Shown here piece after piece: positions 18,355-52,892 of a stretch of 64,000 nucleotides of DNA (within the stretch, counting starts at the first letter, position 1; every line of letters starts with the position of its first letter). The notes beneath the pieces were generated by a model. It was not told where the DNA came from. It searched no databases and saw nothing but the letters and a program-made list of their open reading frames with translations. This stretch comes from Lytechinus pictus (lineage: Eukaryota), in the NCBI RefSeq assembly GCF_037042905.1, contig NC_087250.1, positions 19,780,001 to 19,844,000 of the forward strand, read 5' to 3'. The position numbers and the translations under genes were made by a program.

Positions 18355-21300
18355 CAGATCCTAGAGAAAATTGTCGAAAAAGCATCTGGGTGAACTCTGA
18401 AGCTAGTCTTCAGCAAATGTCAAACGGGCAATCGACAGTGAAGTTCGCAAGAAAACTTCTCTAAAGGAAAAACTCCAGAGAATGAAGATCATCATAAGAA
18501 CAAAGAATAGCGGAGATGATGATATGTTGTGCATCAGCCATTGTGACTGACTGGTATAGCTAGGATTGAAAACAATGAACAATGGAATTCAATATGGCAG
18601 AGCTTTGGAAAACAGGAAGAATATGCTAAACAATTACACACAGAGGCAAACATACCTTATAATAAATGTGGCATTGAGGAAATTCAAAGATTACAAAAAT
18701 AACTGAATGGCAAAATAACCGAGTAATCGTCATTTCCCAAAAAGAATTTGAACAGTATCATTTTTGTTTGACCCGAGGACAAAGAAACATCCCCTTTTTA
18801 ATACTTGTATTGGAATTGCCCCAGAGCTGTTCTAGTGAATAATCATTTAATGGACAAGAAGTTGCGAGATATAAAAGGGCCAGTCTAGAGCAGTAATGGG
18901 CGACATTTTGATCGCTGGAAAGAATTTGAAGGCGCACATCAATCAGATCCTAGAGAAAGTCGTTGCCAAAGCAACTGAGTGTACTCTGAAGCTAGTCTTC
19001 AGCAAATGTCAAACAGGCAATCAACAATTAAATTTGCAAGACGTTTCTAAAAGCAAAACTCCCGAGAAGAGATCATCATAAGGACAAAGAATAGGGGTGA
19101 TGATAATATGTGTTGTCCATAGGCGATTGTGACTGGTATCTAGCTAGGATTGAAAATGATGAACAATGGAATTCAATAAGGCAGAGCTATGGAAAACAGG
19201 CAGAATATGCTAAACAATTACACACAGAGGCAAACATACCTTATAATAAATGTGGCATTGAGGAAATTCAAAGATTACAAAAATAACTAAATGGCAAAAT
19301 AACCGAGTAATCGTCATTTCCCAAAAAGAATTTGAACAGTATCATTTTTGTTTGACCCGAGGACAAAGAAGCACTCCCTTTTTAATACTTGTATTGGAAT
19401 TGCCCATTGCCCCAGAGCTGTTCTAGTGAATAATCATTTAATGGACGAGAAGTTGTGTGATATAAAAGGGCCAGTCTAGAGCAGTAATGGGCGACATTCT
19501 GATCGCTGGAAAGAATTTGAAGGCGCACATCAATCAGATCCTAGAGAAAGTTGTTGCCAAAGCAACTGAGTGTACTCTGAAGCTAGTCTTCAGCAAATGT
19601 CAAACAGGCAATCAACAATTAAATTTGCAAGACGTTTCTAAAAGCAAAACTTCCGAGAACAGATCATCATAAGGACAAAGAATAGGGTGATGATAATATG
19701 TGTTGTCCATAGGCGATTGTGACTGGTATCTAGCTAGGATTGAAAATGATGAACAATGGAATTCAATACGGCAGAGCTATGGAAAACAGGCAGAATATGC
19801 TAAACAATTACACACAGAGGCAAACATACCTTATAATAAATGTGGCATTGAGGAAATTTGAAGATTACAAAAATAACTGAATGGCAAAATAACCGAGTAA
19901 TCGTCATTTCCCAAAAATTTGAACAGTATCATTTTTGTTTGACCCGAGGACAAAGAAGCATTCCCTTTTTAATACTTGTATTGGAATTGCCCCAGAGCTG
20001 TTCTAGTGAATGGACGAGAAGTTGCGTGATATAAAAGGGCCAGTCTAGAGCAGTAATGGGCGACATTCTGATCGCTGGAAAGAATTTGAAGGCGCACATC
20101 AATCAGATCCTAGAGAAAGTCGTTGCCAAAGCAACTGAGTGTACTCTGAAGCTAGTCTTCCGCAAATGTCAAACAGGCAATCAACAGTTATAAATTTGCA
20201 AGACGTTTCTAAAAGCAAAACTCCCAAGAATAGATCATCATAAGGACAAAGAATAGGGGTGATGATAATATGTGTTGTCCATAGGCGATTGTGACTGGTA
20301 TCTATAGCTAGGATTGAAAATGATGAACAATGGAATTCAATACGGCAGAGCTTTGGAAAACAGGCAGAATATGCTAAACAATTACACACAGAGGCAAACA
20401 TACCTTATAATAAATGTGGCATTGAGGAAATTCAAAGATTACAAAAATAACTGAATGGCAAAATAACCGAGTAATCGTAATTTCCCAAAATGAATTTGAA
20501 CAGTATCATTTTTGTTTGACCCGAGGACAAAGAAGCATTCCCTTTTCAATACTTGTATTGGCATTGCCCATTGCCCCAGAGCTGTTCTAGTGAATAATCA
20601 TTTAATGGACGAGAAGTTGTGTGATATGAAAGGGCCAGTCTAGAGCAGTAATGGGCGACATTCTGATCGCTGGAAAGAATTTGAAGGCGCACATCAATCA
20701 TATCCTAGAGAAAGTTGTTGCCAAAGCAACTGAGTGTACTCTGAAGTTAGTCTTCAGCAAATGTCAAACAGGCAATCAACAGTTAAATTTGCAAGAAGAC
20801 GTTTCTAAAAGCAAAACTCCCGAGAAGAGATCATCATAAGGACAAAGAATAGGGGTGATGATAATATGTGTTGTCCATAGGCGATTGTGACTGGTATCAA
20901 GCTAGGATTGAAAATGATGAACAATGGAATTCAATATGGCAGAGCTTTGGAAAACAGGCAGAATATGCTAAACAATTACACACAGAGGCAAACATACCTT
21001 ATAATAAATGTGGCATTTAGGAAATTCAAAGATTACAAAAATAACTGAATGGCAAAATAACCGAGTAATCGTCATTTCCCAAAAAGAATTTGAACAGTAT
21101 CATTTTTGTTTGACCCGAGGACAAAGAAGCATTCCCTTTTTAATACTTGTATTGGAATTGCCCCAGAGCTGTTCTAGTGAATGGACGAGAAGTTGCGTGA
21201 TATAAAAGGGCCAGTCTAGAGCAGTAATGGGCGACATTCTGATCGCTGGAAAGAATTTGAAGGCGCACATCAATCAGATCCTAGAGAAAGTCGTTGCCAA

Positions 21301-22160
21301 AGCAACTGAGTGTACTCTGAAGCTAGTCTTCAGCAAATGTCAAACAGGCAATCAACAGTTAAATTTGCAAGAAGACGTTTCTAAAAGCAAAACTCCCGAG
21401 AATAGATCATCATAAGGACAAAGAATAGGGGTGATGATAACATGTGTTGTCCATAGGCGATTGTGACTGGTATCTAGCTAGGATTGAAAATGATGAACAA
21501 TGGAATTCAATACGGCAGAGCTATGGAAAACAGGCAGAATATGCTAAACAATTACACACAGAGGCAAACATACCTTATAATAAATGTGGCATTGAGGAAA
21601 TTCAAAGATTACAAAAATAACTGAAAATAACCAAGTAATCGTCATTCCCCAAAAAGAATTTGAACAGTATCATTTTTGTTTGACCCGAGGACAAAGAAGC
21701 AATTGCCCATTGCCCCAGAGCTGTTCTAGTGAATGGACGAGAAGTTGTGTGATATAAAAGGGCCAATCTAGAGCAGTAATGGGCGACATTCTGATCGCTG
21801 GAAAGAATTTGAAGGGGCACATCAATCAGATCCTAGGGAAAGTTGTTGCCAAAGCAACTGAGTGTACTCTGAAGCTAGTCTTCCGCAAATGTCAAACAGG
21901 CAATCAACAGTTATAAATTTGCAAGACGTTTCTAAAAGCAAAACTCCCAAGAATAGATCATCATAAGGACAAAGAATAGGGGTGATGATAATGTGTTGTC
22001 CATAGGCGATTGTGACTGGTAACTAGCTAGGATTGATAATGATGAACAATGGAATTCAATAAGGCAGAGCTATGGAAAACAGGCAGAATATGCTAAACAA
22101 TTACACACAGAGGCAAACATACCTTATAATAAATGTGGAATTTAGGAAATTCAAAGATTT
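18355..22160 (+). repeat. Tandem array of ~550-595-bp chimeric units (Gypsy RT fragment + Polinton pPolB fragment), block 1
   Basis: atgggcgacatt anchor at 18896, 19487, 20056, 20651, 21227 and 21779, plus a more diverged leading partial unit. Confidence 0.9.
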
Positions 22161-22350
22161 GAAAATACAACTCAACCGCAAAATAACAGAGACTTCAAAC
22201 AGTTATCATTTACGTTGGTCCAAAGGACCAGTTATTTTTCCTTTAATTGTATTGGCACAATGATCACATGATCTTGTGACATCACTAAGTGCCTTCTACA
22301 ACAGATCATACTTCTGCACAAAGTGTCTGACAGTGACAGGATACAATATC
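21950..22350 (+). pseudogene. Polinton/Maverick protein-primed PolB, N-terminal region fragment (decayed; duplicate at ~30960-31360)
   Basis: Reads, with stops and frameshifts, ..CCP*AIVTG..ARI..DEQWNSIRQSYGKQAEYAKQLHTEANIPYNKCG...IIYVGP...LYWHNDH.DLVTSLSAFYNRSYFCTKC; resembles the region preceding the pPolB exonuclease. Confidence 0.7.
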
Positions 22351-22619
22351 AACTTAAGTGCAAAATGCTTGCAAGCTCTGGCACATTACAGACTGCACAG
22401 CACCTCAGAGGCGGTGGAACATCAGGCTCATACAATGAAAGTGGAGGGGCACCTATTGTTTGGCAGACAAAAGGTGCCTCTCCACTTTCTATGTCCGAGC
22501 CTGATGTTCCGCTGCCTCTGCTGCACCCGCCAAGAATGACAATCTTCATCACTGCGATGTGTGTCACATAGTGTGGAGGTATACAGCTTCTGGGAGAGAA
22601 TTTGTGATGGAGAAGGAAT

Positions 22620-22870
22620 TACATGACTGGATGGAGGAGCTTAGTCAGTATGACATGCGCCTGGAACACCGCCCAGGCAAGAAACATGTCAATGCCAATG
22701 CTCTGTCTAGGGTCCAATTGCCGAAGGCGCTCTGTGAAGAGTATCGTTTGGGGTTTGATCTGCAGCAACTGCCATGCGGAGGCTGTGGGTACTGCTCCGA
22801 GGCACATCAAAACTGGGCCACATTCGGCACGGTGGTGGACAATGTTGTGCCTTTCGCAGGCCGTGCCGCA
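22620..22870 (+). pseudogene. Gypsy LTR-retrotransposon RNase H C-terminal fragment
   Basis: WMEELSQYDMRLEHRPGKKHVNANALSR followed by CGGCGYC..AH..W..F...VDNVVP. Confidence 0.8.
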
Positions 22871-23479
22871 AAGGTGGGATGTTGCAGAAGTTGACCCCTT
22901 CAAAAATTGTATCACCATCGCAGCAGAATGAGGACATAATATTCAGCATAACTTTTTAATGCCATATGATATACCATCGCCTAGATTCCACCCAGAGGTG
23001 AACCTTCACAGGACATGCAATCCAATATTGCAATAAGATGGCTGATTTATGTTGGCCAACAAGAGTATGTCTATATTCAACATGCTAGAAACAAAGGTGA
23101 GGAATGGGTTGGACAATATAAGGTGGATGGGTTTTGGAGTAACAACAAGAGTTCATGGGTGTTTTTGGTATTACTGCCCAAAATGTTACCATGGCCACAC
23201 ACCCTGTCAATGTGGCAATGTAATGTAATGTCATGACATGACATGTAATGTAATGAAATGTAATGTAATATAATCAATGTCATGTAATTTAAGGAAATGT
23301 AATGTAATGTAATATAATGTAGTTTTGGACAAAGGTGTAGGTGATCTATAATATACTCTTGAAAAGGATTTCCAGGAGAGAGGATTACAGTGCCATATTC
23401 GAGGCCAGAATTATTCACAGTGGAAGGAATGCCACCGAGCATCACTTTAACAAATCCAGGACAGTTGAGTTCATACCAG

Positions 23480-23651
23480 GAAAAGCATTTCCGGGAGGAA
23501 AGCGGATTTCAGTGCCTTATTCAAGACCAGAATCATTCACAGTGGAAGGAATGCCACCGAGCATCCCTTTAAAAAACCCTGGCCAATATGGGAAGGAGGC
23601 TCTTCTTAGCATCCTTCAAAATATTGAAAACATACAATTCCAGAGTATGAG
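23480..23651 (+). pseudogene. GTF2I(TFII-I)-repeat-like exon B, intact-frame copy (stop-containing copy from 23977)
   Basis: KAFPGGKRISVPYSRPESFTVEGMPPSIPLKNPGQYGKEALLSILQNIENIQF matches the I-repeat pattern VPY..VEGLP..IPF..P..YG...L..IL...E.I.F. Confidence 0.6.
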
Positions 23652-24321
23652 GTTGGAGTGAGGTTCTCACTTATTTCGTAATACTGTGCCTTTTACAGTG
23701 GGCTTACAAATGCAAATTTTTATATTACCAGTGTACAGAAAATGAGAAAAATCCAATACGTTGACTTAAACATATCTCTATCCCAGAATCAATAAGTAAG
23801 GTTCTTACCAAGTAGGACATCCACACGTTATGAATTCACATTATCAAGACAATTCTGAATTAGGATTGCAAAATAGTTTTGAACATTTCAAACAAGCCAG
23901 AAAACCTAGAACCAAAAATGTAATGTATTGTATATATGAAGCTAACTTGTTTCAATTGTTGTTGAATTCGTACCAGGAAAAGCATTTCCGGGAGGAAAGT
24001 GGATTTCAGTGCCTTATTCAAGACCAGAATCATTCACAGTGGAAGGAATGCCACCGAGCATCCCTTTAAAAAACCCTGGCCAATAAGGGAAGGAGGCTCT
24101 TCGTAACATCCTTCAGAATATTGAAAATATACGATTCCAGAGAAAGAGGTTCTCACTTACTCCGTAATACCTTTTACAGTGGGCTTACAAATGCAAATTT
24201 TTATATTACCAGTGTACAGAAAATGAGAAAAATCCAGTACGTTGACTTTAACATCTCTCTATCCCAGAATCAATAAGTAAGGTTCTTATCCAGTAGGACA
24301 TCCACACGTCATCAATTCAAA

Positions 24322-24404
24322 TTGCATGGGTTGTGGCTCGTCAGGGGGGGGGGGGGGGCAGACTGCCCCCTCTGCGCCCCCCCCCCCCCGTAGGTACGCT
24401 AGTG
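24322..24404 (-). mobile_element. One terminus of the 6694-type hAT MITE, at the segmental-duplication junction
   Basis: Reverse complement of 6694-6757 (cactagcgtacctacggg...cacaacccatgcaa). Confidence 0.75.
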
Positions 24405-27304
24405 ATAATAAATGTGGCATTGAGGACATTCAAAGATTACAAAAATAACTGAATGGCAAAATAACCGAGTAATCGTCATTTCCCGAAAATAATTTGAACA
24501 GTATAATTTTTGTTTGACCCGAGAACAAAGAAGCATCCCCTTTTTAATACTTGTATTGGAATTGCCCATTGCGGCATTGCCCAAGAGCTGTTCTAGTGAA
24601 TGGACGAGAAGTTGTGTGATATAAAAGGGCCAGTCTAGAGCAGTAATGGGCGACATTCTGATCGCTGGAAAGAATTTGAAGGCGCACATCAATCAGATCC
24701 TAGAAAAAGTAGTTGCCAAAGCAACTGAGTGTACTCTGAAGCTAGTCTTCAGCAAATGTCAAACAGACAATCAACAATTAAATTTGCAAGACGTTTCTAA
24801 AAGCAAAACTCCCGAGAAGAGATCATCATAAGGACAAAGAATAGGGGTGATGATGATATGTGTTGTCCATAGGCGATTGTGACTGGTATCTAGCTAGGAT
24901 TGAAAATGATGAACAATGGAATTCAATACGGCAGAGCTATGGAAAACAGGCAGAATATGCTAAACAATTACACACAGAGGCAAACATACCTTATAATAAA
25001 TGTGGCATTGAGGAAATTCAAAGATTACAAAAATAACTGAATGGCAAAATAACCGAGTAATCGTCATTTCCCAAAAAGAATTTGAACAGTATCATTTTTG
25101 TTTGACCCGAGGACAGAGAAGCATTCCCTTTCTAATACTTGTATTGGAATTGCCCATTGCCCCAGAGCTGTTCTAGTGAATGGACGAGAAGTTGTGTGAT
25201 ATATAAGGTGCCAGAGCCATCGCTGGAAAGAATTTGAAAGCACACATCAATCAGATCCTAGAGAAAGTAGTTGCCAAAGCAACTGAGTGTACTCTGAAGC
25301 TTGTCTTCAGCAAATGTCAAACAGGCAATCAACAGTTAAATTTGCAAGAAGACGTTTCTAAAAGCAAAACTCCCGAGAAGAGATCATCATAAGGACAAAG
25401 AATAGGGGTGATGATAAAATGTGTTGTCCATAGGCGATTGTGACTGGTATCTAGCTAGGATTGAAAATGATGAACAATGGAATTCAATATGGCAGAGCTA
25501 TGGAAAACAGGCAGAATATGCTAAACAATTACACACAGAGGCAAACATACCTTATAATAAATGTGGCATTGAGGAAATTCAAAGATTACAAAAATAACTG
25601 AATGGCAAAATAACCGAGTAATCGTCATTTCCCAAAAAGAATTTGAACAGTATCATTTTTGTTTGACCCGAGGAGAAAGAAGCATTCCCTTTTTAATACT
25701 TGTATTGGCATTGCCCATTGCCCCAGAGCTGTTCTAGTGAATGGACGAGAAGTTGTGTGATATAAAAGGGCCAGTCTAGAGCAGTAATGGGCGACATTCT
25801 GATCGCTGGAAAGAATTTGAAGGCGCACATCAATCAGATCCTAGAGAAAGTGGTTGCCAAAGCAACTGAGTGTACTCTGAAGCTAGTCTTCAGCAAATGT
25901 CAAACAGGCAATCAACAGTTAAATTTGCAAGAAGACGTTTCTAAAAGCAAACCTCCCGAGAATAGATCATCATAAGGACAAAGAATAGGGGTGATGATAA
26001 TATGTGTTGTCCATAGGCGATTGTGACTGGTATCTAGCTAGGATTGAAAATGATGAACAATGGAATTCAATACGGCAGAGCTATGGAAAACAGGCAGAAT
26101 ATGCTAAACAATTACACACAGAGGCAAACATACCTTATAATAAATGTGGCATTGAGGAAATTCAAAGATTACAAAAATAACTGAATGGCAAAATAACCGA
26201 GTAATCATCATTTCCCAAAAAGAATTTGAACAGTATCATTTTTGTTTGACCCGAGGACAAAGAAGCATCCCCTTTTTAATACTTGTATTGGAATTGCCCA
26301 TTGCCCCAGAGCTGTTCTAGTGAATAATCATTTAATGGACGAGAAGTTGTGTGATATAAAAGGGCCAGTCTAGAGCAGTAATGGGCGACATTCTGATCGC
26401 TGGAAAGAATTTGAAGGCGCACATCAATCAGATCCTAGAGAAAGTTGTTGCCAAAGCAACTGAGTGTACTCTGAAGCTAGTCTTCAGCAAATGTCAAACA
26501 GGCAATCAACAATTAAATTTGCAAGACGTTTCTAAAAGCAAAACTCCCGAGAACAGATCATCATAAGGACAAAGAATAGGGGTGATGATAATATGTGTTG
26601 TCCATAGGCGATTGTGACTGGTATCAAGCTAGGATTGAAAATGATGAACAATGGAATTCAATATGGCAGAGCTTTGGAAAACAGGCAGAATATGCTAAAC
26701 AATTACACACAGAGGCAAACATACCTTATAATAAATGTGGCATTTAGGAAATTCAAAGATTACAAAAATAACTGAATGGCAAAATAACCGAGTAATCGTC
26801 ATTTCCCAAAAAGAATTTGAACAGTATCATTTTTGTTTGACCCGAGGACAAAGAAGCATTCCCTTTTTAATACTTGTATTGGAATTGCCCCAGAGCTGTT
26901 CTAGTGAATGGACGAGAAGTTGCGTGATATAAAAGGGCCAGTCTAGAGCAGTAATGGGCGACATTCTGATCGCTGGAAAGAATTTGAAGGCGCACATCAA
27001 TCAGATCCTAGAGAAAGTCGTTGCCAAAGCAACTGAGTGTACTCTGAAGCTAGTCTTCAGCAAATGTCAAACAGGCAATCAACAGTTAAATTTGCAAGAA
27101 GACGTTTCTAAAAGCAAAACTCCCGAGAATAGATCATCATAAGGACAAAGAATAGGGGTGATGATAACATGTGTTGTCCATAGGCGATTGTGACTGGTAT
27201 CTAGCTAGGATTGAAAATGATGAACAATGGAATTCAATACGGCAGAGCTATGGAAAACAGGCAGAATATGCTAAACAATTACACACAGAGGCAAACATAC
27301 CTTA

Positions 27305-30300
27305 GGCCAAGTAAAAAAAGAAAGTAGTTGATCGTCCTCGCGCGCATCTATTTTGGCCGCCGCATGAAAATTTTTACTATTTACTATTAGGAGTGGGCTA
27401 TACATGGGTCAAAAATACTTTTTTTGTAATTTCAATATGACAACAGTTTTTTTTAATTCCTTGTAATGTATCTCAACATGAAACAACAATATTTTTTGTC
27501 TCGGGTCCGAGAAAAAAGTGTGCCGGGCCAAAATCCAAAATGGCCGCCAAAACCCCCCAAAATCACAGTTTTGGCCACAACTTTATTATTTGGTGGTCAA
27601 TTTCTCTGGTTTTGGTGTCTATTCATATGTTTTTTGGGGCAGGCAATTTGTTTTTCCTATAATTAGTACTTTTAAACCATTATTTGTAGAGTTAAAAGGT
27701 AATTATACCTAAATGTTCCCATTTTTGTAGCCTTTTTTCAGCCAAAAAGTGGGTTTTATCATCCTGGGGTTCTGGGATATTAGATGGTACGAGGTCAACA
27801 ATAGCAAGCAGCTTCATATAGCTATATTGCTTTTATTCCTCCACTTTGGGTTTTACGGATATTTGTGAAATATATCTTATTAAATAAAAAAAATGTCAAT
27901 TATCCATTGGGGCTATACAGTATACATATGTACAATGTACTGTACATACATACTGCACTGCATAAATGCATTGGCCACCATGACAGATAACAAGGCTTGT
28001 ATAAACTATAGTGTCATAGAAATGAGCTCTCAGGTTTAGAATTAGATGCCTCAGAAATTGAAGATATGTTTTGTCTCAGAAATTGAGGACATGTTTTGTC
28101 AAATATGCTAATTCAGGGGGCGGAGAGAGGTAATTTACACTGTAGCTATTCTGGGCCCCATTGCATAAAAATTTACCATTATGTTAACTTAACTTAATGG
28201 TAACTTGCATGCAATCCTTTATTCTGATTGGTTGTTGATCAGCGTTACCATGATACTAGTAGTTACCTGACCCCATAAACATAGGCCAGTTAGACACCAG
28301 AACCAGGTTAAAAAAAGCCTCCAAATGAAGAAGATATGGTTAAAAATGTGATGTACGTATATATACATGTATGTGATATTTACATGAAAGTTTAATTTAC
28401 GTTGCTGGTTTCACCATGTACATCAGCTGACAAGGAATCAAATTCTAAACCTTTGAAGCTCATTTCTATGACACTATAGTTTATATACAGGCCTTGTCAT
28501 ATGCCATGGTGGTCAATGCATGGATATATGCAGTGTAGTACAGTGTAGTACAGTGCATTGTACACCGTATAGCCCCTATGGATAAATGACATTTTCTTTT
28601 ATTTGATAAGATATATTTCACAAATATCCGTAAAACCCAAAGTGGAGGAATAAAAGCAATATAGCTACATGAAGCTGCTTGCTATTTTTGACCTCGTACC
28701 ATCTAATATCCCAGAACCCCAGGATGATAAAACCCACTTTTTGGCTGAAAAAAGGCTACAAAATGGGAAAATTTAGGTAAAATTACCTTTTAACTCTACA
28801 AATAATGGTTTAAAAGTACTAATTATAGGAAAAACAAATTGCCTGCCCCCAAAAACATATGAATAGACACCAAAAACCAGAGAAAATGACCACCAAATAA
28901 AAAAGTTGTGGCTAAAACTGTGATTTTGAGGGGTTTTGGCGGCCATTTTGGATTTTGGCCCGGCACACTTTTTTCTCGGACCCGAGACAAAAAATATTGT
29001 CATTTCATGTTGAGATAAGGTAAAAGGAACACAAAAAAACTGTTCCCACAGTAAAACCAAAAATCACCCATTTATAGCCCACTCCTATTACTATTTTCAA
29101 AAATTGGCTTTAAAAAAAAAAAAAAAAAAAAAATGGTGATGTTTCTCCTCCGTGCCTGCTTTCCTTTTTGATTGCAGCATCATTTTTCTTGATATCTACT
29201 ATTTTTATGGCTGCTGATTAGCGAAAAAAAATCACAAGATTGGCGAGTGATTTGCTCTCATGTGCTCTGGGATCTCTCTCGCAACTTCAAAAACAATTGC
29301 TAAGTCCGATATCGCCGTAACTGCAAGAAGGAAAAAAATTCTGATTTGTTTTTTTATTGGAATTTTGAAGATACCATCATAAATTAGCGAGAAAATAAAG
29401 TTTGCAAACTCGGAAAAGATCACGGATTTCTTCATTTTTAGTGCATTTTCCGGGACCCCGCTTCCTAAATCTGAACTAATCTGTCGCGTGCTTTGGAAAT
29501 ATGGCGCAGATAAATCAATTTTAATGATGTAATTTGTATTTTAGCGGGGTATTTTGGTGAGTGATAGCGCCAGTACTTCTATGTGTGTTACGGTGAATGA
29601 GCTGTGCTTGTGACTCTGTTGGGTAAATGCATGTGTGCTGGGATGATGTGATTGACTGTGCTGGCGCGACATGTGAATTTGTGAAATGAATTGAATTTTC
29701 TGGCAAGTTTTCTTACGTCAGCAGGCAATGCATTGAATATTCAAAAAATAATTTGAAGTGGGTTATTCATTATCAATATTGAAAATCATTAATGGGATTC
29801 CAGTAAGTGCCAATTCTGTTCAAATTTGATAAACTTCATTCTTCCTCGAGCTATTCAATTTGATGGACAATTGTAAAAATTAGTAAATAGATCTAACACT
29901 AACAGTTACAAATATTGAAATAATAAACATTATGTGAACAATTAACAATTAATTCAATAATCATTTAACATTTGATATCAATTAAAAAAATGAATAAAAA
30001 TTGAACAGTATTTAACATTATGTAAACGAATATACAAGCAGCTGGAAACTGCGATGCGAAACCATGCCCAGAGCTAAAAAAGAGATTGGCTCTGGAAAAC
30101 TGAACATGGCTCCATGGTAATAAAAATGACCCCTCCCCCAAATGCATGTTTTACCCTTACATATATATTAATATAGAATAATGTTTAAATCATTCACTTG
30201 ACATGAACATTTTGTTTTACAACAAGTAGCGGTATACATCAGTAATACTTCAGTAGATTTTTATCGCATAATATATTTTCCATATAGATTTCCAATCAAT

Positions 30301-39850: not shown

Positions 39851-39984
39851 CAGGGTGTAGTATTTTTATTCATACAACTGTCCTTGTTTTCTCACAGGGA
39901 GCGTCAAGTTTGCCAACATTTTGCATGCCCGTAAGGCCGTAACCATCCCAAGTATCAGGCCACAGAGATCGTGGAACTCTTCAA

Positions 39985-41445: not shown

Positions 41446-41720
41446 GTGCTGTGCATCAGCATTTCACCCAAAGATTTGGAGAAAAATGGACCGTTCATCA
41501 AATGAAAGAATTGTGGAAGAGGCAAAGGATACTTGCCAAGATAAAATATAGTGAATACCGAAGAAAGCAAAGAGAAACAGGTGGAGGTCCATCTCCACTG
41601 AAAGCGACTACATTGTACACTACTGATCAAAGAGATTCTGCCGTACGATTTCATTCAGCCCCAAAATCCATACGATGACGATGTCATACTTCAAAATGAC
41701 CAGGCCATTTCAGCCCTGGA
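41446..41720 (+). pseudogene. Myb/SANT-like DNA-binding fragment (Harbinger accessory-gene type)
   Basis: FTQRFGEKWTVHQMKELWKRQRILAKIKYSEYRRKQRETGGGPSP; the ..TGGGP signature follows the helix. Confidence 0.7.
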
Positions 41721-42066
41721 ATTCATCACTGGTGACCATAAACATACTTTAAAGAGTAAGAAGAGAAATTAGACTCTTTGCAATATATTTTTGCTAGTCA
41801 AGATCTAGATCAAATTGATCATGTTAATTTTGTACTTGTATTTTTCAATTTGCATAGCAGGAAGTACTGATGTCAAATGCAGGAAAGATGTGCGGTGTTA
41901 CTGGGGATATCTTGGAAGACACATTTATTTAAGAGTAATGCAAGCATACCCCGATGGAGCAGGAAGATACAAAGGAACTGTGCTGCGAGTCCCGAGATTT
42001 ACCAATTTTACCGATGTGTTCGAGTCACCCCTATTAAATAATGAACTTTCAAACTTCAATTAACAA

Positions 42067-45000
42067 TAGGAGTGGGCTATAAATGGGTGATTTTTGGTTT
42101 TATTGTGGCAACAGTTTTTTTGTGTTCCTTTTTACCTTATCTCAACATGAAATGACGATATTTTAGTCTCGGGTCTGAGAAAAAAGTGTGCCGGGCCAAA
42201 ATCGAAAATGGCCGCCAAAACCCCCCAAAATCACATTTTGGGCCACAAATTTTTCATTTGACGGTCTTTTTCTCTGGTTTTGGTGTCTATTCATATGTTT
42301 TGGGGGGCAGGTAATTTGTTTTTCTTAAAATTAGTACTTTTAAATAATTATTCGTAGAGTTATAAGGTGATTTTACTTAAATTTACCAATTTTTAAAGCC
42401 CTTTTTCAGCCAAAAAGTAGGTTTCTTCGTCATGTGGTTCTTGGATATTATACAATACCAGTTGAACAGTAGCAGGCAGCTTATATAGCTATATTTTTTA
42501 TTCCTCCAAAAATTGGGGTTATGGATATTTGCGAAATATATCTCATCAAATAAAAGAAAATGTCATTTATCCATAGGGTAATGTTTTAACCCGCACCCGT
42601 TGCGGTATGGGTTAACCTGCCGGTATGCCCCCGATCGCGGGTTGCGGGCCGTGTTCATTCTCAAACCCGCAGATCGTCATACGAAAAAAAGGGAGAAGTA
42701 ACGACGCATAATAAAAACATAAACAATGAAAATTTAGTTAGGATCATGTGCTCCTTACGTGGCGGATTCTTTTAGAGACGTAGATATTTCCTTTTAAAAA
42801 ATGCCGGCGTTTGTGAACAGTGAACAGGACTGAGACAGTTTGACATAATACATCGAATTGCTCTTTCAAAGGAGCGCCAGTGCAGCGCAGTCAAAATCAA
42901 TCGCATATCGAATTAAGCAAAAAGATAAACGCAGCTTAAGATTAAGAGCGAAGTTGATTATCAATTAGAAATTGTTAGGCCGTGCGAACCTGCTGTCACG
43001 TGACAAAGCTGTCCCACATACGAGTCGACTCAGCTATCGCCAGCCCATTTTATTTGATTCATCTATAAAAATGATAATCACGGATCGCAATCTTTATATT
43101 ATCTTGTTATGATCAATTACCAGTTGAAAATAAAATTGGTGGAAGCAATCTAAACGACCTGAATGAAAATTATCATGTTCATGTTCATAACGATTCAAAA
43201 CAGATCAACGACGCCTAATTTGAGTAAAAATTTGAGTCAGAATGAAAAAAAATGACTGAGTAAAGAAACTAATAAAATAGATGAATGAAAGACAGTTTAA
43301 AACTTTAAAGTAAGTTTGAACTAAAGTGAGATTAAAAAAAATACAATATGAATGAAGAAATGAACGAACCAAACGATAAGTTTGAACTGGGAGGCAGGAG
43401 ATCTTTTAATGAATAAGTGAATATCAATAATGAACTTGAAACTTAATGAATTACTTTCTTATTTTCCACGACAAGTGTTCCCACTCAATGATTGGAGCTA
43501 ATTAATTGGAGCTCACTGCTCATTGATAACATGGGTCCTAGTATGATCCATGCTGATAACAAGGGGACGGGAATCTGAATCCGACACTTTATATATGTTC
43601 CAATATATTATTTGGATAATTCCGCCTCAGTCCTGTTTACGTAACAATGAAATTGATTGACAAACGGCGATGTAATTGGCAGCTGTATCTTCTCTGCAAG
43701 TCTGCATGAAACATTCACTTTCCCACGCTCCCCACCTCCTTGCTAGTCGGCACTATCGATTTATTTACCGTGCAGATTAAAGGAAGTATTACACTTGGCG
43801 GGACATTTGATTTGATATTAATAAAAAGACAGAGCGAAACCTTAAGTTGTTAAGCTCTTGTTAGATAACCACCAAAAACCTGCTGTATTCCGCCTGTTTG
43901 AGAAATTCGGTACTTCCACCATTATCTCCTTATCAGAATCTCAAAATCCCCCTAATTACTGAACAAAGACCCCTTTCTTTTAAATTACAATATACTGTAA
44001 ACACACATTTAGGGTTGATGTTGATGATTTCTTTCCACCATCATTCTGGCTTCATCAACCAAATCGAGTAGACACGGCGAACAGAACGTCTGATGTATGG
44101 AATCATTTCACCGATGACGAGGCAGATAGGGCATATGCACACTGCAATTATTGCAATGCTAGGAGGAAGGCCGGAGAAGGCCGAAATAGCGGGAGGAGTA
44201 ACCTGCGTCGTCATCTCATGGATTGCCTCACTTACGCTCGTCATCGACGTCGTAATGAAGCTGCTGTTCCACAAGCTGCCGGCGACGCCGAAGCAGCAGC
44301 ACACCCCGGGGTAGCACCAGCAGCACCCAATCGTGAACATGAACGACATCCAGTGGCCCCTCGGCCTCGTCCACGAGACGGCCATGTGCAAGAAACTTTA
44401 GCGGAAAACATTGGCAGAAGGGCGAAATACAGGAGGGATAGCGTCAGATCGCAGGAAATAGACAGATCCATCGGAAAAATGATGGCTTTTGATCTTACAC
44501 CCTTCAGTATCGTCGAGAACGACGGGTTCAAGCAGCTTCTTGGGAAGCTGGATTCTCGATACGACATCCCATCTCGTCCGTATTTCTCTCAAACTGTGGT
44601 GCCTGGCCTCTACAATGAGATGAGGGAGAAACTCATCTTTGACATTTATTTATTTTATACTTACCCTCAAAATTTTACATACGCTCAAAGTTTACTTCAT
44701 AGATATATTTTGGTACCATCTACATTTAAACTTGGAGGAAAAATAAGTTTAGAAAGTTCATCATTTTCTGCTCCATATAAATGTTGCCACATCTACATAT
44801 TACAAACAGTACATGTTTCAGATATTAAACCCTTTTTTCTGTTTTGTTTTAGTAACATGGACAAAAAGTCCATGTAACGTAGTTACAAATATTATTCCAC
44901 ATCATAGAAGAAAGTACATGTACATGAGGATTATAAGTTTTTCCATCCTGTCTCTGTATTTGACATGTTTCAAGGTTTATATAAACCTGTTATGGGTCAG

Positions 45001-45755
45001 TTATCTGTCCAAAAAAATTTATCACAGAAAAGATAAGATATGAAAAATTCAAAAAGTATAAAGTGAGAAACTACTTGATATTTGGGTAGTTACTATAATC
45101 ATTGTTATGTTGTCAAATGCATTTGAGAAGTTTTGCCATTGAATGTTACTGTCATTACCATAGTTTCCATGAGAAAAACTATCATAATAATCCTTTTGTG
45201 TTTCTTTAGAATAGAAAATATACAAGTTGTTAAAAAAAAAAGTCCATGTAACGTTGTTATTTCATTCCGATTGTTATGATGCATGACATAGAAGTATGAA
45301 GGTGAACACACATAATTTTTTGGAAATCAGTTAGTTCAATAGTGCTGGAAAACATGTAGATCATTAGGGAATTGTTTTGGAAGAATTCAATTTTGCACTT
45401 CTATGTCACACTTTTTGACCCAACCTCATGGAAACACCCTTATACAGGCCTTGTTATCTGTCATGGTGACCAATGCATTTATGCAGTGCAGTATGTATGT
45501 ACAGTACATTGTATACTGTATAGCCCCAATGGATAATTGACATTTTTTAATTTAATATGATATATTTCACAAATATCCGTAAAACCCAAAGTGGAGGAAT
45601 AAAAGCAATATAGCTATATGAAGCTGCTTGCTATTGTTGACGTCGTACCATCTAATATCCCAGAACCCCAGGATAATAAAACCTACTTTTTGGCTGAAAA
45701 AAGGCTACAAAAATGGGAAAATTTAGGTATAAATACCTTTTAACTCCACAAATAA
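42067..45755. mobile_element. Second, disrupted copy of the foldback element (arms 42067-~42580 and ~45441-45755)
   Basis: Homologous to the arms of 27388-29087; the interior is replaced by a hAT fragment. Confidence 0.75.
44011..44640 (+). pseudogene. hAT transposase N-terminus (BED zinc finger + Hermes-like dimerisation domain), 3'-truncated
   Basis: One open frame: SDVWNHF...AHCNYC...SNLRRHL...DLTPFSIVENDGFKQLLGKLDSRYDIPSRPYFSQTVVPGLY; probable left end tagggtaatg at ~42574. Confidence 0.85.
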
Positions 45756-45814
45756 GGAATAATCAACAAAGAAACACATTAAAAAGAAAATGATGCAAAG
45801 AAATGTGCCTGGAG

Positions 45815-46080
45815 TGCATGTGCATCAGCATTTTACCCAAAGATTTGGAGCAAAATGGACCGTTCATCAAATGAAAGAATTAAGGAAGAGGCAAAGGATA
45901 CTTGCCAAGAAGGAATATAGTGAATACCGAAGAAAGCAAAGAGAAACCAGTGGAGGTCCATCTCCATCTCCCCTGAAAGCGACTACACTACTGATCAAAG
46001 AGATTCTGCCGTACGATTTCATTCAGCCCCAAAATCCATACGATGACGACGTCATACTTCAAAATGACCAGGTCATTTCA
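45815..46080 (+). pseudogene. Myb/SANT-like fragment, duplicate copy
   Basis: Near-identical to 41446-41720. Confidence 0.7.
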
Positions 46081-47759
46081 GCATCACTTTTAAATCAAAA
46101 TCAAATCCAAGGAGTCTTAATCACCAGTTCTAATTATTACATAATTCTCATTCAATCTTATTCAATTCAATATAACATTAATTTTCTACATGATTCTTTT
46201 TTCGACGTTCATTTTTTTGTTTTTTTCCCCAAAATTTTAACTTAATAACTGAAGAAGGTAAAGAGGCGGATTAGAAGCCGTTATCGGCAGTTGTGAAATG
46301 TGTTCAAGTCACCCCTATTAAATAATGAACTTTTAAGCTTCAATTAACAATGAAAACAAGACCCAGTTCGCTAGCCCGGCACTTCTCACCATGGATCTCC
46401 AGAAGACAGCACGAATCGCCTCACTTCTGATGTAAAACAAAATTCAAGGAGTCCTTATAACAAGTTCACAGTATTATATAATTCTCATTAAATCTTATTC
46501 AAATCGATATAACATTAATTTTCTTCATGATTCATTTTTTTATGTTCATTTTTTTTTCTTCAAAATTTTAACATGTAGTTAGAAGGCAAAGAGGCGGATT
46601 TGAAGCTGTTATCGGCAGTTGTGAAATTTTTGAGTTTTATGTGATTGTATTTTTCAAATATTTATGTCAATCTTACATTGACAATGAAAAAATAATCCAG
46701 ACAATGGGGACAGATGATAAACACAACATAACTGTCACCGATAACTTTCAAATAACGAAAGATGTGAAAAGGTAAACGATCGAGACAAAGGAATCCCGTA
46801 AAGATCGGACAGAGTATGTCAAACAAATTTTATGTCAGACTCTTTCACATTTTGGTATGCAGGGTGCAGAATTTATTTTCACACAATTGTCCTTTTTTTT
46901 CTCTCACAGGGAGGGTCAAGTTCGTCAACATCTTCCATGCCCGTAACCATCTCAAGTATCAGGCCACAGAGATCATGAAACTTGAAATATAAATGTATAT
47001 GCTTCTTGAAGACTTCAGTTACCATACACTCTTTGTATTTTTTTTTCATTTTTTTTTTTTGGGGGGGGGGGGGCAATCTGACTAACTTCTCAGAAAGTAA
47101 TATTGTTTGCTCCACAAACATAATGTGCTAACAAATTACATTGTATTTTTCTATTTAAATTTTGCAGGAAATACCGATATGTTGCATAAAGGAAAGTCGT
47201 ACGATGGTGCTGGGGATATACCTTGGGAAAGATATAAGAGTTCAAATACCTGCCTGCATCCATTCAAGGATAATGCGAGCTTACCCTGCCGGAGCTGGGA
47301 AGTACACAAAGGAACTGTGTCGAGAGTCCTGAGACGCTAGTTTCCTTGATTCAGTGGATAAAAATCCTGCACAGACTGTCAGCGCCGGATTCAAGGCCGA
47401 AGTCTTGACTGCGGGTCGAGTGCCCCCAGTAGCAACTCCGGGAATTCCCAATCAGATGGTTTTCACCACTTTCCGGACCGTCTGGAGTTAAATTCAAGGA
47501 TCCTGTGACCGTTCCACAGAACCTTGGAGACCCTGTGAAGCTCCAAAGGACCCTGAAGACCCTGTTGTAGTCCCACAGGGACCCAAAATCCCTGCGGCCG
47601 AGGAGACTATGGACCTGGCCTCTGATGGGGAACCAGATATCCACAGATCCGATTCTGAATACTCCATTCCATCGGAGTGGGAAAGGAAGCAGGACTCTCG
47701 CCCGAAGAGAGTGGGACCCCGGGGCAATCCTGGGTTGTGGGAGACGCCCACTTGATCGG

Positions 47760-47880
47760 CTCTGTGACCATATTTATAGTCATATGCCGGCGTTTCTGCA
47801 ACCTTTAAGGTCCTCCGTGGGAAGAACGTGTTTACGAGCAGAACAACAGCTCGTGATCCTCAAATTCCTTGCGAGGGAGC
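47760..47880 (+). pseudogene. Possible Harbinger transposase HTH fragment
   Basis: LQPLRSSVGRTCLRAEQQLVILKFLA; short motif only. Confidence 0.4.
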
Positions 47881-49398
47881 TCATCCAGAGTGAGCAATTG
47901 TCCACCCTCGTGGAGTGGGTTAATAACATGACTGCCAAAGGAAGGCGGTATGAGTGGAATCTTCCCGAAAGTGTTCAGGAAGAGATGAGTAGTATGTGGT
48001 GCTCAATGCAAGTGCCAGCTGGGATTCACCATCCACCATCGGCAATATTTAATTGTCACACCGTCACATCATCTAACTGGCAACAGTCTTGAAAATGCTA
48101 TACCAGTTCTGCTAGTAGCTATGTCATGCAGTCCCGAACAGAGCATAATTCACTCCTTTCTAGTTTGCTGTCTAAACCTTGCAATCAAGGAGAGTTGTGT
48201 GAATATGGTGCTTAGAGTCCCTGCCTTTGACCTAGAAGGTCCCTCTCATTTCAAATTGAAACACAAGTTGTATGTGTGCTGTGAAGCCTTACTTATTGAT
48301 CAAAGTTTCACACCCCCCCCCCCCTTAGCAACAGCCGAGCAAATGATATTACAACCAGAACGTTCCATTCTGCTTGAAGGGGTAATGCAGACAAGTAAAA
48401 GGATAAACAAAGTGTGTGGAGTCTATATCCTTACCAGTGGCAGTGGAAGAAGTTTTTTTAAACAATTTTGATGACTTATGACCAGCACACTTCATATTAT
48501 AGATGCTTCAGATTGGGAGAATAGGGAGAGGAGATATGTGAAATCATATTGTTATTATTTTAGTAAGTTCACTCTATTTCTAATCCAAAGAGAAAAGTGA
48601 TGACATAATCTTACTCTACAAACTTAACAGTAATTTTTTTTTGTTATTTTCATTTTTTTGCCACATTTGAAACAATTCTGTATTTATTAATAGATTTTTA
48701 ATTTTTATTATTATTTTTATTTTTAGTATCATTATTATTAAAATTATTATTATTATTTTTTTTTTTTTTGGGGTGTATACTAAATCTACTGATAATCCTG
48801 AGGTGTAATTATCATTAGGTTACAGGCTAGATGTAAACGAGGTCTAGTAGTAGGGTAACATAGCCTCTAGATTTCTACTTGCTTCTTTTTACTTGATTTT
48901 CTTCAACTTTTAAGTTTTACAAAAATCATTCATTTTTGGTCTTTCTCGCCAGCTGCCACATGTTGTATTCCTGAATTTGAATCCTGTCAATTTTTCTTTC
49001 AGTTTAGGATGTCCACTTTGCCAGTGAGGAGCACAAGAAAAATGAAAGAACATGATTTAACCGAAACTTGAGCAACGGCCAACTGACAATACATTGCTAC
49101 AGAGGAAACGGTCAACTACAAAGCTGTACCCACTCAAAGTAAAAGAATCCAAGTACATACATGTAGATAAAATAAAGAATTACTTGTAATAGAAGATCAC
49201 ACCGAGAAAGAGTTGAGTTCTAAAGAACTTGACACTTGGGTTGAAGCCAGGAATATAGTTGATATTTCCGATTCATTTGTCAATGAAACAGAAGAACAAA
49301 AAAATAAATCATTGAACATTTGAAGATTGCAGACAACGAAGCTTGCAGAGCCAAACGTGGAAAGTATTTTGAACATAGAACTTCCAATACCGCAAAAC

Positions 49399-49833
49399 AT
49401 ACTTGAAGAAATAGCATCACTAGGATAAAATAAGTCGGCCTTTAGAGTCCGCTATCGTTTCTCTATTAAGGGAGAATGTCATCTTCATCATCAACATGAT
49501 TGAAGCAGACTTGAAGAGGATCGAGGAGAGGAACAATCCTCTACCTGTCAGTCTACAGGTTTGGACTGCTCTACAATCATATGTCATTTGTGAGCAATTA
49601 ATTCTTTTATCCTTAATACTTGAAGAAATAGCATCACTAGGATAAAATAAGTCGGCCTTTAGAGTCCGCTATCGTTTCTCTATTAAGGAAGAATGTCATC
49701 TACATCATCAACATGATTGAAGCAGACTTGAAGAGGATCGAGAAGAGGAACAATCCTCTACCTGTCAGTCTACAGGTTTTGACTGCTCTACAATCATATG
49801 TCGTTTGTGAGCAATTGATTCTTTTATCCTTAA
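49399..49833 (+). repeat. 217-bp tandem duplication containing a HARBI1-like transposase N-terminal fragment
   Basis: Units at 49399 and 49616; FRVRYRFS..ENVIFIINMIEADLKRIEERNNPLPVSLQVWTALQSY. Confidence 0.75.
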
Positions 49834-49997
49834 TATCACCCAAAAGGTACTATTGCTTAGCTGTAGATGTATATTTTAAATGCTAATAAATCTTCCATAG
49901 ATTTTTATCGAATGGCATTAAAAAGAATGAAAGACAAATACTGTTGAGTGTTCTTATTTTTATTTCACTCTTCAAATCAAATAAAACGTGCAACACC

Positions 49998-50210
49998 ATG
50001 CCTGCTGTTGCATACTGCAAGAATTTTAGTGTCTTTTTGACACTGAAAGCATATTCTATCCTCTACAACTTGGACAGCTCTGGTTTTCTCCTCGACGGAG
50101 AATATTTTCAATTCTATGAGTCAACTGAGGAAGCAGCTAATGTCCAATGGTGGAGTTGGTCCAGGTTTACTCTGCAGGAGACACCCACGTTTGCGTACTT
50201 CAATTTCTAG
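49998..50210 (+). CDS. Small unknown protein, paralog 1 (70 aa)
   Basis: accATG start, TAG stop; divergence from paralog 2 is dominated by synonymous changes. Confidence 0.5.
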   Translation: MPAVAYCKNFSVFLTLKAYSILYNLDSSGFLLDGEYFQFYESTEEAANVQWWSWSRFTLQETPTFAYFNF

Positions 50211-50441
50211 GTAACAACAACCCCCCCAAAAAAAACACATAAATAATGAGTCAAGCGGAGTAAAAGCAACAGATTTGAATTGGAACCTGAAAAAGCGTGC
50301 AAATTATTATTTCTAAAAGTTTCTTTCTTGGGGAAAAATCTCAGATGAAGGGAAGTATAAAAAGTAATAAAAACAGGCCTGAACAAATAACAATTAGATC
50401 TAATTCAAATCAAATACGGTACAACGTGCAACACAGTGACC

Positions 50442-50690
50442 ATGCCTGCTGTGGCGTATTGTAAGGATTTCAGTGTCTTCTTGACACTAAAAGCTTATTC
50501 TCTGCTCTATAGCTTAAACAGCTCTAGTTTTCTTCTTGACGGAGAGTACTACATGCTTTACGGATCCAGTGAAGAAGCAGCTCATGTACAATGGTGGAGC
50601 TGGTCGAGGTTCACTGTGGCAGAGACACCCACGTTCGCATACTTCTGGGTAACAACAACCCTCCCCCCCCCAAAAAAAAAAATAAAATAA
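50442..50690 (+). CDS. Small unknown protein, paralog 2 (TGG at the position of paralog 1's TAG relative to the shared 3' flank, giving read-through)
   Basis: accATG start, upstream gtataaaaag TATA-like motif; 55/68 aa identical to paralog 1. Confidence 0.45.
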   Translation: MPAVAYCKDFSVFLTLKAYSLLYSLNSSSFLLDGEYYMLYGSSEEAAHVQWWSWSRFTVAETPTFAYFWVTTTLPPPKKKIK

Positions 50691-52764
50691 AATATAAATA
50701 ATGAGTCAAGCAGAGTAAAAGCAACAGTGGGAAAATCTTTGATAAAGGCAAGTATAAAAAGTAATAAAAACGGGCCTCAACAATAATATCTAATTTAGAG
50801 CTAAGTAAAAGAACAAATTAACATAAAATAGCTTTTTAGTTTAAAAGTTTTCTTGTGCATTATCAGCAATTTATTTTTCTCTCCATCCCCCATCTCTCTC
50901 ACGCTCTCTCATCCTCTCTGAATTTTATTTCTTCAATTAGATCCTTTAAATGTTGAAGCCCATCGATCAAGCTTTAATGTGTCAATCAGGGGAATTCCCT
51001 GTGTCTCTCGATGGCCTTGGAGGTCGAGACAGAATGCTGCATGCCATGCCACATGTGCCATTTGATCTCTCTCACATGTTCTTTCCATCCATGTTGAGAA
51101 AAGTCCATTCATAAATAATTTAGACTGATATCCAGCCTTTTATGTTTTCCATTCGATTGATTTTCCCCACTTTACAAGGCAGAGAGGGTATTTCTCTAGA
51201 TATTCTCAATAAAACGACTGTATTCGATTTATTAATATTCATGAGGATCGTAAGCACGTGATCAAAAAGATCGTCGGAATCATGTATATTCAACAGCTCT
51301 GGATGACGTCATTTTTAGTTTTTTGCTTGGGAATCGAAAACCCTGATAGGTATTGGCATGAAACTAACAAGAAAAACACTAGAATACTATTTTCTAACTA
51401 CCATATAAAGTGCAGCTCAAAAAATGCACGGGATCATATTTTTAAAAAGTTTTTCATCGGTCTCCCTAATAATAACAAATTTGCAATAACAGTTAAAAGC
51501 TACTGATATCCTTCAATCTGATTGGCTGATAGAAACTGTGCATTTGTTATTATGACAAGTCTTTATTAAACAGGACCTTACATCTTACTCTGCAGATTTG
51601 CCGCTGGTCGAGCAAACAATCAATCATCAAAAATAATTCAAAATTCATTTTTGCAAGATTGAAATATGAAATGATTTTCTAGTATAATTCATATTATTGA
51701 CCCTTGATACTCAAGCTCCTAGTGGGGCTACCATTACAATGTACAAGTCCCAACTATATAAACTCTTGCATGATCCTTCGGCCCGTATTCTTAAGTTCGG
51801 TTTAATTAAAACTCTGGTTTCAAGTTGTGGTCTAACTATGGAGAGCCAGTTGTTTCATAAATCTCTAACATTAGAGGTTCAATGCATCAGCTCATTTGAC
51901 TCCCAAAACATTATTAACTGCCTGGGAAGGATAAGTATAACAGTTGTCTTCAACATTGAATAATTAGTGAAGAGCACAGTTAACATGAGAAGCATACACT
52001 GTAAACAAAATTTTGAAATGTTTGGCTTCCCATAATTTTAGCAGAGTAAGACAATGGTCCAAGTTGAACCCGACTGCAGAATACGGGCCTCAGAGTACAC
52101 TGTACTTTCATTAGGTTGCTTCCTTTGCTTTATTTTCTTCAATTATCTGCATGCTTTCAAAAAGGTGTTGTGCCATAGTGGTTTTCCTGCATTTCCCATT
52201 ATATTGTCTTTTCATCATGGACAAAAAATAACGGAATTGCAAATGGAAAGCTGCTTGAATGATTACTTGAGAAAAGACACGAATCTGACCTTTGATGCGG
52301 TTCGTCGCGGAACTCCTTCCAATCTTGTAGAGTGGACATCGTGTACCAGTCAGCAATGGTTTCAGGCCATGAACATCCTTGAACTCCAACCCCCAAAGAA
52401 TAGATCTCTAGGAGCTGACTTGTACAGTTATAATACCTACCCAGCATCCCTGTGCAAATCAAATTACACAGATTTTTACCTCCTGCATGAAGAGTGGCAC
52501 GTGGAGATCAATGCCTTGCCTGAGGAACAAGCGCTGAAAGTGAAGTCCAGAGGTCCACGGGCAACATGGTGTGTGGTCCATATCAACTGACGTCTACAGA
52601 TATTGTAATTCCCGCTGGCTTTGACCATGAAGTTCCAGTAGGAAACAAGATAGGTACATCTAGTTCATCAAGCACATGAAGCTCCATGCTTTTGTCTAAA
52701 ATCCACAAATCTAGGGAAATGCCACTTCTATTCCCTGGCAGTTCTGGTAACAGTGGAAGATTGT

Positions 52765-52848: not shown

Positions 52849-52892
52849 CTGAAGAGTCATGAAGAGAAAAGAATAATTAAAGACTACAACAC

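Follow-up and report, generated by a model that had tools for sequence, protein, structure and literature searches.

A transposon-rich block in the transcriptional wake of ATG101 in Lytechinus pictus, read as a decayed Polinton-based nest

Uni-strand clusters of PIWI-interacting RNAs (piRNAs) are typified by flamenco of Drosophila, which has its own promoter and fragments that closely resemble active elements in sequence, over a region far larger than the locus described here: a block of transposon-derived sequence (18.35-50.8 kb) downstream of ATG101 in a 64-kb window of the Lytechinus pictus genome (the whole stretch of DNA analysed, C6:19,780,001-19,844,000, to which the positions below refer). 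Satellites, too, have a bearing on this locus, as they can arise from internal fragments of mobile elements. In PMC11615739, piRNA clusters downstream of genes (piC-DoG) are described as products of transcriptional read-through in mammalian gonocytes, with a transposon content enriched in the antisense orientation, and flamenco is referred to. Transposon piRNAs are also reported from the soma of starfish (PMC6085071).

The Lytechinus block shares features with each of these systems. We favour, with confidence only a little above even, the reading that it is nothing more than a decayed nest of transposons based on a Polinton, which direct duplication has inflated and which lies in the transcriptional wake of ATG101; no dedicated function is implied.

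One polymerase gene among truncated elements

All 436 stop-to-stop open reading frames (ORFs) of at least 50 amino acids (aa) in the window were scanned with Pfam, and only GTF2I, zf-BED and ATG101 were returned. Read-through frames of 34101-42200 (+) likewise gave 0 families, indicating that Pfam alone is blind to such remnants. Coding remnants were therefore identified by way of relatives elsewhere in the same 812-Mb assembly, whose open frames were scanned with Pfam and then compared with the window by tblastn.

The reference for the largest remnant was an uninterrupted 1392-aa ORF for the Polinton protein-primed polymerase (pPolB; PF03175, DNA_pol_B_2, E 3e-49), present at two other loci of the genome. 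Compared with this protein, the sequence at 18.35-34.1 kb together with that at 39.5-39.8 kb is a single pPolB remnant, the pieces of which are collinear from aa 217 to 1377 and all on the + strand. Residues 228-333 match every copy of a 585-bp unit (E 1e-23 to 1e-28; 2e-18 for the truncated last unit), aa 228-396 (21960-22567) and aa 715-871 (22586-23207) match a unique core and its duplicate, and aa 936-994 match the end of every copy of a 480-bp unit. The C-terminal part, aa 1266-1377, matches 39489-39823 (+) within a feature at 39478-39839 (+) that is collinear with the N-terminal and middle parts, and aa 1326-1377 recur at 40866-41018 and 46686-46832. The segments missing from the remnant are aa 1-216, 397-714 and 995-1265, and all frames are riddled with stops. 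The N-to-C order of the pieces, all in + sense, points to the remnant of one polymerase gene that was amplified in place. Thus the N- and C-terminal polymerase parts recognised in the first-pass annotation stand, with a middle part added to them; its picture of 18.35-34.1 kb as a mosaic of unrelated pieces does not, as repeat finding shows arrays and duplicates of one gene.

The 585-bp unit is present in 13 copies, and the 480-bp unit in 6-8 copies (23374-24358 and 32381-34100); in both cases the tandem units are arranged head to tail and share 88-95% identity. Array I of the 585-bp unit (18354-22191, +) holds about 6.5 units of broken pPolB sequence (aa ~228-333) by repeat finding, self-blastn and tblastn. 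It runs into the unique core (21931-23207, +; DNA search and tblastn), which carries a 115-bp palindromic miniature inverted-repeat transposable element (MITE) at 22406-22520. Two 480-bp units follow at 23374-24358 (+), each consisting of a GTF2I-like I-repeat and then pPolB aa 936-994 (repeats, Pfam, tblastn), and array II of the 585-bp unit, with five units of aa 228-333, occupies 24405-27304 (+; repeats, tblastn, self-blastn). Finally, a segmental duplicate with further 480-bp units extends over 30586-34100 (+; repeats, Pfam, tblastn, self-blastn) and repeats the last 585-bp unit (30586-31198), the core, an RNase H piece and the I-repeats; 21573-24322 and 30586-33310 are 96.9% identical over 2750 bp. 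Repeat finding and self-blastn showed that the arrays and the local duplicates are all in direct orientation. In the own-genome search, strong matches to the arrays were confined to this locus, and a DNA search with 20796-24400 gave collinear matches of 74-81% at three other genomic loci.

No Polinton integrase, ATPase, capsid gene or terminal repeat was found in the window by tblastn with the ORFs of the relatives L007 (at least 100 aa) and L020 (at least 80 aa). Since polymerase pieces are all that is left, we class the sequence as a Polinton remnant and not as an element. The genome has Polinton relatives at C5:36.89 Mb, C3:0.33 Mb and C3:12.14 Mb. The 1392-aa ORF is uninterrupted in L007 (3423-7598, -; C5:36.89 Mb) and in L008 (3081-7256, -; C3:0.33 Mb), and the C5 copy (L007/L020) has an ORF for an A32-like ATPase beside pPolB and an ORF for an integrase of the rve-chromodomain type nearby (L020 5893-6993, +).

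Other truncated coding pieces lie in or beside the polymerase remnant. A linker between Gypsy RNase H and integrase is nested within it at 22616-22879 (+), with a duplicate at 31623-31886, and shows 84-85% aa identity to aa 199-286 of the pol ORF of L011. That pol ORF (L011 4697-7159, +) ends in a PHD finger, and downstream of it, on the same strand, is an 894-aa ORF (7235-9916, +) with a C-terminal TatD-type DNase domain; to our knowledge, no TatD-carrying Gypsy element has been described. At 36483-37889 (+) lies a frameshifted pseudogene of the CACTA/Transposase_21 type, nearly full-length relative to about 520 aa, which was identified by protein match and model alignment. The protein most similar to it is uncharacterised and comes from a sea star (48% identity, E 1e-39); the Atlas model predicted for that protein aligns with Transposase_21/CACTA clusters at template-modelling (TM) scores of 0.78-0.88. 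In the Lytechinus genome, no DNA-level relative of the pseudogene was found.

A fragment of a Gmr1-like Gypsy polyprotein extends over 39979-41433 (+), with aa 157-327 (SCAN/Gag) at 39979-40493 and aa 517-569 (protease region) at 41273-41426, split by a local duplicate (40490-41177) composed of the repeat R1 and the pPolB C-terminal piece. The parent is a 1491-aa ORF (L013 1894-6366, -) in the order SCAN, CCHC, integrase, SH3, reverse transcriptase (RT), RNase H, and Gmr1-like relatives are at C6:7.57, C3:78.03 and C5:54.01 Mb. The position of integrase ahead of RT in this ORF is the Gmr1-like gene order. The feature at 41428-41997 (+), recognised through relatives, comprises a Myb_DNA-bind_5 fragment (41430-41742; relatives at C6:8.24, C2:19.75 and C21:2.67 Mb) and a P2RX7_C-like piece (41881-41997), and local direct duplicates of the Myb piece (45820-46083), R1 and the pPolB C-terminal piece fill 45796-46982 (+; self-blastn, tblastn). 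A second P2RX7_C-like piece (47142-47323) precedes a fragment of a TatD-DNase-linked ORF family (47832-48086) within 47087-48086 (+; tblastn, Pfam of relatives); one parent locus, L016, holds both in collinear order, and the family source of 47832-48086 (L016 4459-5067, +) is related to the 894-aa ORF of L011. The hAT BED ORF at 43984-44646 (+) is 92% identical in aa to the BED-finger part of its parent (C11:26.97 Mb), which has a hAT dimerisation domain as well.

The GTF2I-like I-repeats are real by Pfam in five ORFs (best E 2.9e-10, above the gathering score). They lie at 23341-23658, 32348-32674, 32955-33152, 33433-33630 and 33916-34086 (+), inside the 480-bp units, in the place that pPolB aa ~890-935 should occupy. 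Their source did not emerge from the own-genome search, which gave only the copies of this locus and one 37%-identical match at C1:37.93 Mb, nor did a search of longer proteins find a relative.

The Gypsy RNase H, Gag, CACTA, Myb, hAT BED and I-repeat fragments first reported on the + strand were thereby borne out, through own-genome relatives, Pfam and, for CACTA, the sea-star protein match. Three further labels did not survive. The supposed Gypsy RT has no Pfam match, and the RT-bearing ORFs of L011, L013, L014 and L023 have no match in the window; the 585-bp unit that looked like RT is pPolB aa 228-333. ORFs of at least 150 aa from 10 own-genome Harbinger loci gave, as their best match for the proposed Harbinger transposase pieces, E=0.027 at 49929-50108, and Pfam found no DDE_Tnp_4 (Harbinger/PIF) in the 436 window ORFs; the piece so labelled at 47832-48086 belongs to the TatD-linked family. 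The small ORF pair, taken as coding, consists of low-complexity ORFs of R1 that lack a Pfam match and are present in both orientations.

Orientation of the remnants and RNA across the block

Every orientable coding remnant of a mobile element between 18.35 and 50.8 kb reads on the + strand, so that the shared orientation itself was confirmed by tblastn with own-genome relatives. The same searches, with a review of minus-strand candidates, gave no credible minus-sense coding remnant within the block. They did return minus-strand matches outside it, at 7053-7175, 11344-11567, 13538-13667, 51318-51455 and 59440-59496, indicating that the method is not blind to this strand. Among the candidates set aside, 37930-38073 matches a low-complexity two-copy sequence of non-coding appearance, the match at 42712-43062 is to an ORF that in the hAT parent, too, is antisense to the BED gene and upstream of it, and the long minus-strand ORFs are not protein-like in look.

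The number of independent events is smaller than the number of fragments. At least 10 independent, unrelated fragments had been counted (INDEPENDENCE), a count that fails in the face of one collinear pPolB gene, 13 and 6-8 tandem units and a 2750-bp duplicate; the Myb piece, R1 and the pPolB C-terminal piece are locally duplicated too. Merging collinear pieces and local duplicates leaves 7-8 events, namely seven of transposon origin (pPolB, Gypsy RNase H, CACTA-like, Gmr1-like Gag-protease, Myb, P2RX7_C/TatD-linked ORF and hAT BED) and the I-repeat. In place of the chance of about 0.002 first given for the agreement, 7-8 orientations yield a two-sided p of about 0.016-0.008, uncorrected and for a pattern picked post hoc from one of very many windows. 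Taken alone, the co-orientation statistic is weak, as agreement of this kind is expected by chance many times over the windows scanned.

ATG101 lies on the minus strand and points into the block, as had been proposed, which is borne out by Pfam ATG101 matches in ORFs 62145-62339 (-) and 54519-54752 (-) and by spliced RNA reads. Its upstream exons span 54519-62339 (-), with an exon end at 54564. A splice joint at 54564>52848, with a GT..AG intron on the minus strand, was seen in 13, 21 and 3 reads of three RNA runs. The exon that starts at 52848 is the true terminal coding exon of ATG101: it holds the last 27 codons, ends in translation with '...VRKLVRDTLAL*', and continues from the stop at 52765-52767 into a 3' untranslated region (3'UTR) of about 2.8 kb.

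The RNA data were three raw, stranded, ribosomal RNA-depleted RNA-seq runs (X9, X10, X11) under the same species label, of which about 6% each was read. Reads were mapped over 35000-54999, and depth was judged in the 18 bins from 35667 to 49673 in which multicopy repeats do not predominate. All reads over the ATG101 exon and joint had the first mate on the + strand, and this class was accordingly taken to mark minus-strand RNA. A further run, X1 (labelled 'RNA?'), was dropped as evidence, since its short contigs on both strands and its even word depth suggested DNA sequenced at low coverage.

Minus-strand RNA kept a depth of 4-9x from 52.8 kb as far as the bin 49674-50340; in two runs the bin after that was close to zero. 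Together with the RNA joint, the translation and the poly(A) hexamers (proximal AATAAA at 52129, distal AATAAA at 49959), this places the terminal exon at 49940-52848 (-). A 3'UTR reaching about 49.94 kb, and so overlapping the right edge of the block, fits the distal hexamer. The poly(A) signal first assigned to ~52129 does have its hexamer there, and reads extend past it as anticipated; RNA nevertheless continues to ~49.94 kb. ATG101 seems to use the distal signal, about 2.2 kb past the proximal one, and X9 shows no fall in depth at 52.1 kb.

Beyond this exon, the 18 bins contained minus-strand RNA in all three runs. Depth was above 0 in 18/18 bins in X11, 12/18 in X10 and 6/18 in X9, with mean depths of 0.84x, 0.36x and 0.14x, respectively, corresponding to about 67, 29 and 11 reads (depth x 667 / 150) against none of the opposite class, the depth of which was 0 in 18/18 bins in every run. 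Relative to the terminal-exon bin, read-through amounted to about 20% in X11, 4% in X10 and 2% in X9. No splice joints, start clusters or separate promoter were seen inside the block in the three runs (35.7-49.7 kb). Low-level minus-strand RNA, antisense to all remnants, thus exists over at least 35.7-52.8 kb, its continuity being that of pooled reads and not of single molecules. The proposal of a minus-strand transcript through the block is partly supported, in that RNA of this strand only runs past the ATG101 poly(A) sites to at least 35.7 kb, and falls short in that its level is low.

Weighing the readings

According to the reading we favour, the history would begin with the insertion of a single Polinton (Maverick), its protein-primed polymerase gene in + sense, and with its subsequent decay. 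Two internal gene pieces (585-bp and 480-bp) and a 2.75-kb segment would have been multiplied by unequal duplication that preserved orientation, and other elements (Gypsy RNase H, CACTA-like, Gmr1-like Gag, Myb, P2RX7_C/TatD-linked and hAT BED) may have landed in or beside the Polinton and become truncated, with young non-coding foldbacks and MITEs presumably inserting later. The sparse minus-strand RNA that the reads show over at least 35.7-49.9 kb would be the product of leaky termination of ATG101. The common + sense would then follow mainly from shared descent and direct duplication, and the residual bias of 7-8 independent events may be due to chance or may arise because antisense insertions are better tolerated where transcription passes.

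Some observations weigh against this account. In X11 there is no step in minus-strand RNA at the 49.94-kb poly(A) site, depth being 0.2-3.7x throughout; this level is above trivial leakage, and could reflect a tissue-specific long transcript. Moreover, even after the collapse, each of the 7-8 orientable families runs antisense to the transcription seen.

The rival that survives best, possible yet on the whole unlikely, is a uni-strand piRNA cluster fed by read-through from the ATG101 promoter, in which minus-strand RNA antisense to every remnant would yield piRNAs against Polintons, Gypsy elements and DNA transposons, and the tandem pPolB copies would raise the dose of anti-Polinton guides. 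It would accommodate the minus-strand-only RNA of the three stranded runs over 35.7-52.8 kb, continuous in X11, the antisense placing of the orientable families, and a dense nest of truncated elements from many families. It also has precedents, piC-DoG clusters being reported in mouse, human and hamster (PMC11615739) and somatic transposon piRNAs in starfish (PMC6085071), and it is a sea-star protein that the CACTA-like piece most resembles. However, two of the three runs put read-through at no more than 2-4% of the terminal-exon depth, the block shows neither a separate promoter nor a splice pattern in the RNA runs, R1 occurs in both orientations, and the orientation statistic has the weakness described above.

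The age of the remnants likewise counts against such a function. They are old, being 72-88% identical to the nearest relatives compared, closer ones possibly existing among those left unscored; perfect 26-mers numbered 0 in 8/13 fragment comparisons, and 26-mers with at most three mismatches to relatives made up 3-70% in every fragment. Nor does the would-be precursor lack poly(A) signals: minus-strand RNA of 34.1-49.9 kb has 25 AAUAAA hexamers (1.58 per kb) against 16 on the plus strand. The depletion of hexamers considered for the transcribed strand is thus absent from this part, which gives no sign of adaptation to a long precursor.

That ATG101 feeds a read-through piRNA cluster in a non-mammalian deuterostome, in which antisense pPolB amplification in place would act as a dosage device in small-RNA immunity against the virus-like Polintons, we regard as a long shot. 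Were small RNAs present, a read-through route to piRNA clusters that has so far been mammalian would extend to another animal lineage, and would be linked to the control of Polintons, copies of which persist in this genome with uninterrupted polymerase genes.

A different explanation, distinctly unlikely in our estimate, dispenses with piRNAs and invokes a filter on orientation, by which insertions with promoters, splice sites and poly(A) signals facing in the same direction as ATG101 would be purged and antisense ones would survive. An antisense bias of retroelements within transcription units is well established in animals, and here the transcribed strand is shown by RNA, all orientable remnants being antisense to it. 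The hexamers divide the block on this point. At 18.35-34.1 kb, minus-strand RNA has 6 AAUAAA against 22 on the other strand, and all 6 sit inside later MITE insertions, as such a filter would predict; the excess of minus-strand hexamers at 34.1-49.9 kb runs the other way. Furthermore, the known bias is modest, not 8 of 8, and most of the block lies past the main poly(A) site at ~49.94 kb, where harm to ATG101 mRNA should be small.

A single composite mobile element, a carrier of Helitron-type or Pack-type cargo with co-oriented captures and present at many loci, is very unlikely: the fragments are indeed short, abutting and devoid of termini, but the relatives of each piece are at different loci and no second locus with the combination was found among the best candidates scored, so that a multicopy composite appears essentially excluded by the own-genome DNA searches.

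The initial observation was therefore partly confirmed and its interpretation partly supported, in that its premises hold: all orientable remnants are in + sense, and RNA is of the minus strand only (35.7-49.7 kb). Read as a decayed Polinton-based nest, the block is an ordinary transposon graveyard with an instructive anatomy, in which one Polinton polymerase gene has been turned into local satellites. It also serves as a warning that counts of co-orientation need to be collapsed for shared descent and duplication.

Young insertions, flanking sequences and known systems

The only young sequences in the block are copies of non-coding foldbacks and MITEs, which have no coding sense. Nested non-coding DNA elements occupy 27302-30594 (no strand assigned, as for the other features of this kind), where a 1.7-kb foldback (27382-29094) interrupts a 1.6-kb element. 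At least 11 copies match the 1.6-kb element at 93-99% identity, and at least 24 match the foldback, whose inverted arms measure about 660 bp, at 95-97%. The foldback at 42034-45755, related to this one and delimited by Pfam and DNA search, has its arms at 42034-42578 and 45440-45755 and encloses the hAT 5' part (42583-44646) and another repeat (44646-45439). The 170-bp palindromic MITE at 35219-35387 is 94-100% identical to many genomic copies, and the two palindromic MITEs taken together, this one and the 115-bp one in the pPolB core, are 89-100% identical to theirs. Mobilisation of DNA transposons in this genome appears recent, to judge from these young foldbacks and MITEs.

Repeat finding also revealed a 147-bp tandem repeat of six copies at 38166-39200, open on both strands, Pfam matches in which were judged spurious. 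R1 is a non-coding multicopy repeat of about 2.1 kb that has two short low-complexity ORFs and divergent sides in its parents. Two R1 pieces lie inside the ATG101 3'UTR (49971-51000), inverted relative to those at 40.5 and 46 kb; taking the parent as reference, one orientation is found at 40.5 and 46 kb and the other at 50.0-51.0 kb. No RNA genes emerged when the window was searched with Rfam and for tRNAs.

In the last ATG101 intron, plus-strand RNA opposite to the gene reaches 12-59x at 53009-54342. This region is rich in simple and multicopy repeats, so these reads may originate elsewhere. Near the left end of the window, a 285-aa open frame at 2289-3143 (-), with a hydrophobic segment, a histidine-rich tail and no Pfam match, is probably an exon of another minus-strand gene.

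Among described systems, the block resembles piC-DoG loci in that a protein gene is followed by tens of kilobases of packed, truncated transposon pieces antisense to the gene, and in that RNA of the gene's strand alone extends beyond the annotated poly(A) site. It differs from them in its weak read-through, in its occurrence in a non-mammal, in that half of the block is one amplified Polinton gene instead of many insertions, and in being known here from RNA-seq and sequence. With Drosophila flamenco, a uni-strand somatic cluster, it shares nested, truncated elements antisense to a single direction of transcription, whereas no promoter of its own was seen here in the RNA runs, the fragments share 72-88% identity with relatives, and the copies of one repeat family face both ways. 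The polymerase sequences are 74-78% identical in DNA to the Polinton/Maverick copies L007/L020 and L008, and collinear with their 1392-aa polymerase gene; unlike in those copies, only polymerase pieces survive in the window. Finally, the head-to-tail 585-bp and 480-bp units, derived from coding sequence, recall satellites that descend from transposable elements, in contrast to which these arrays have few units (13 and 6-8) and occur at this one locus only.

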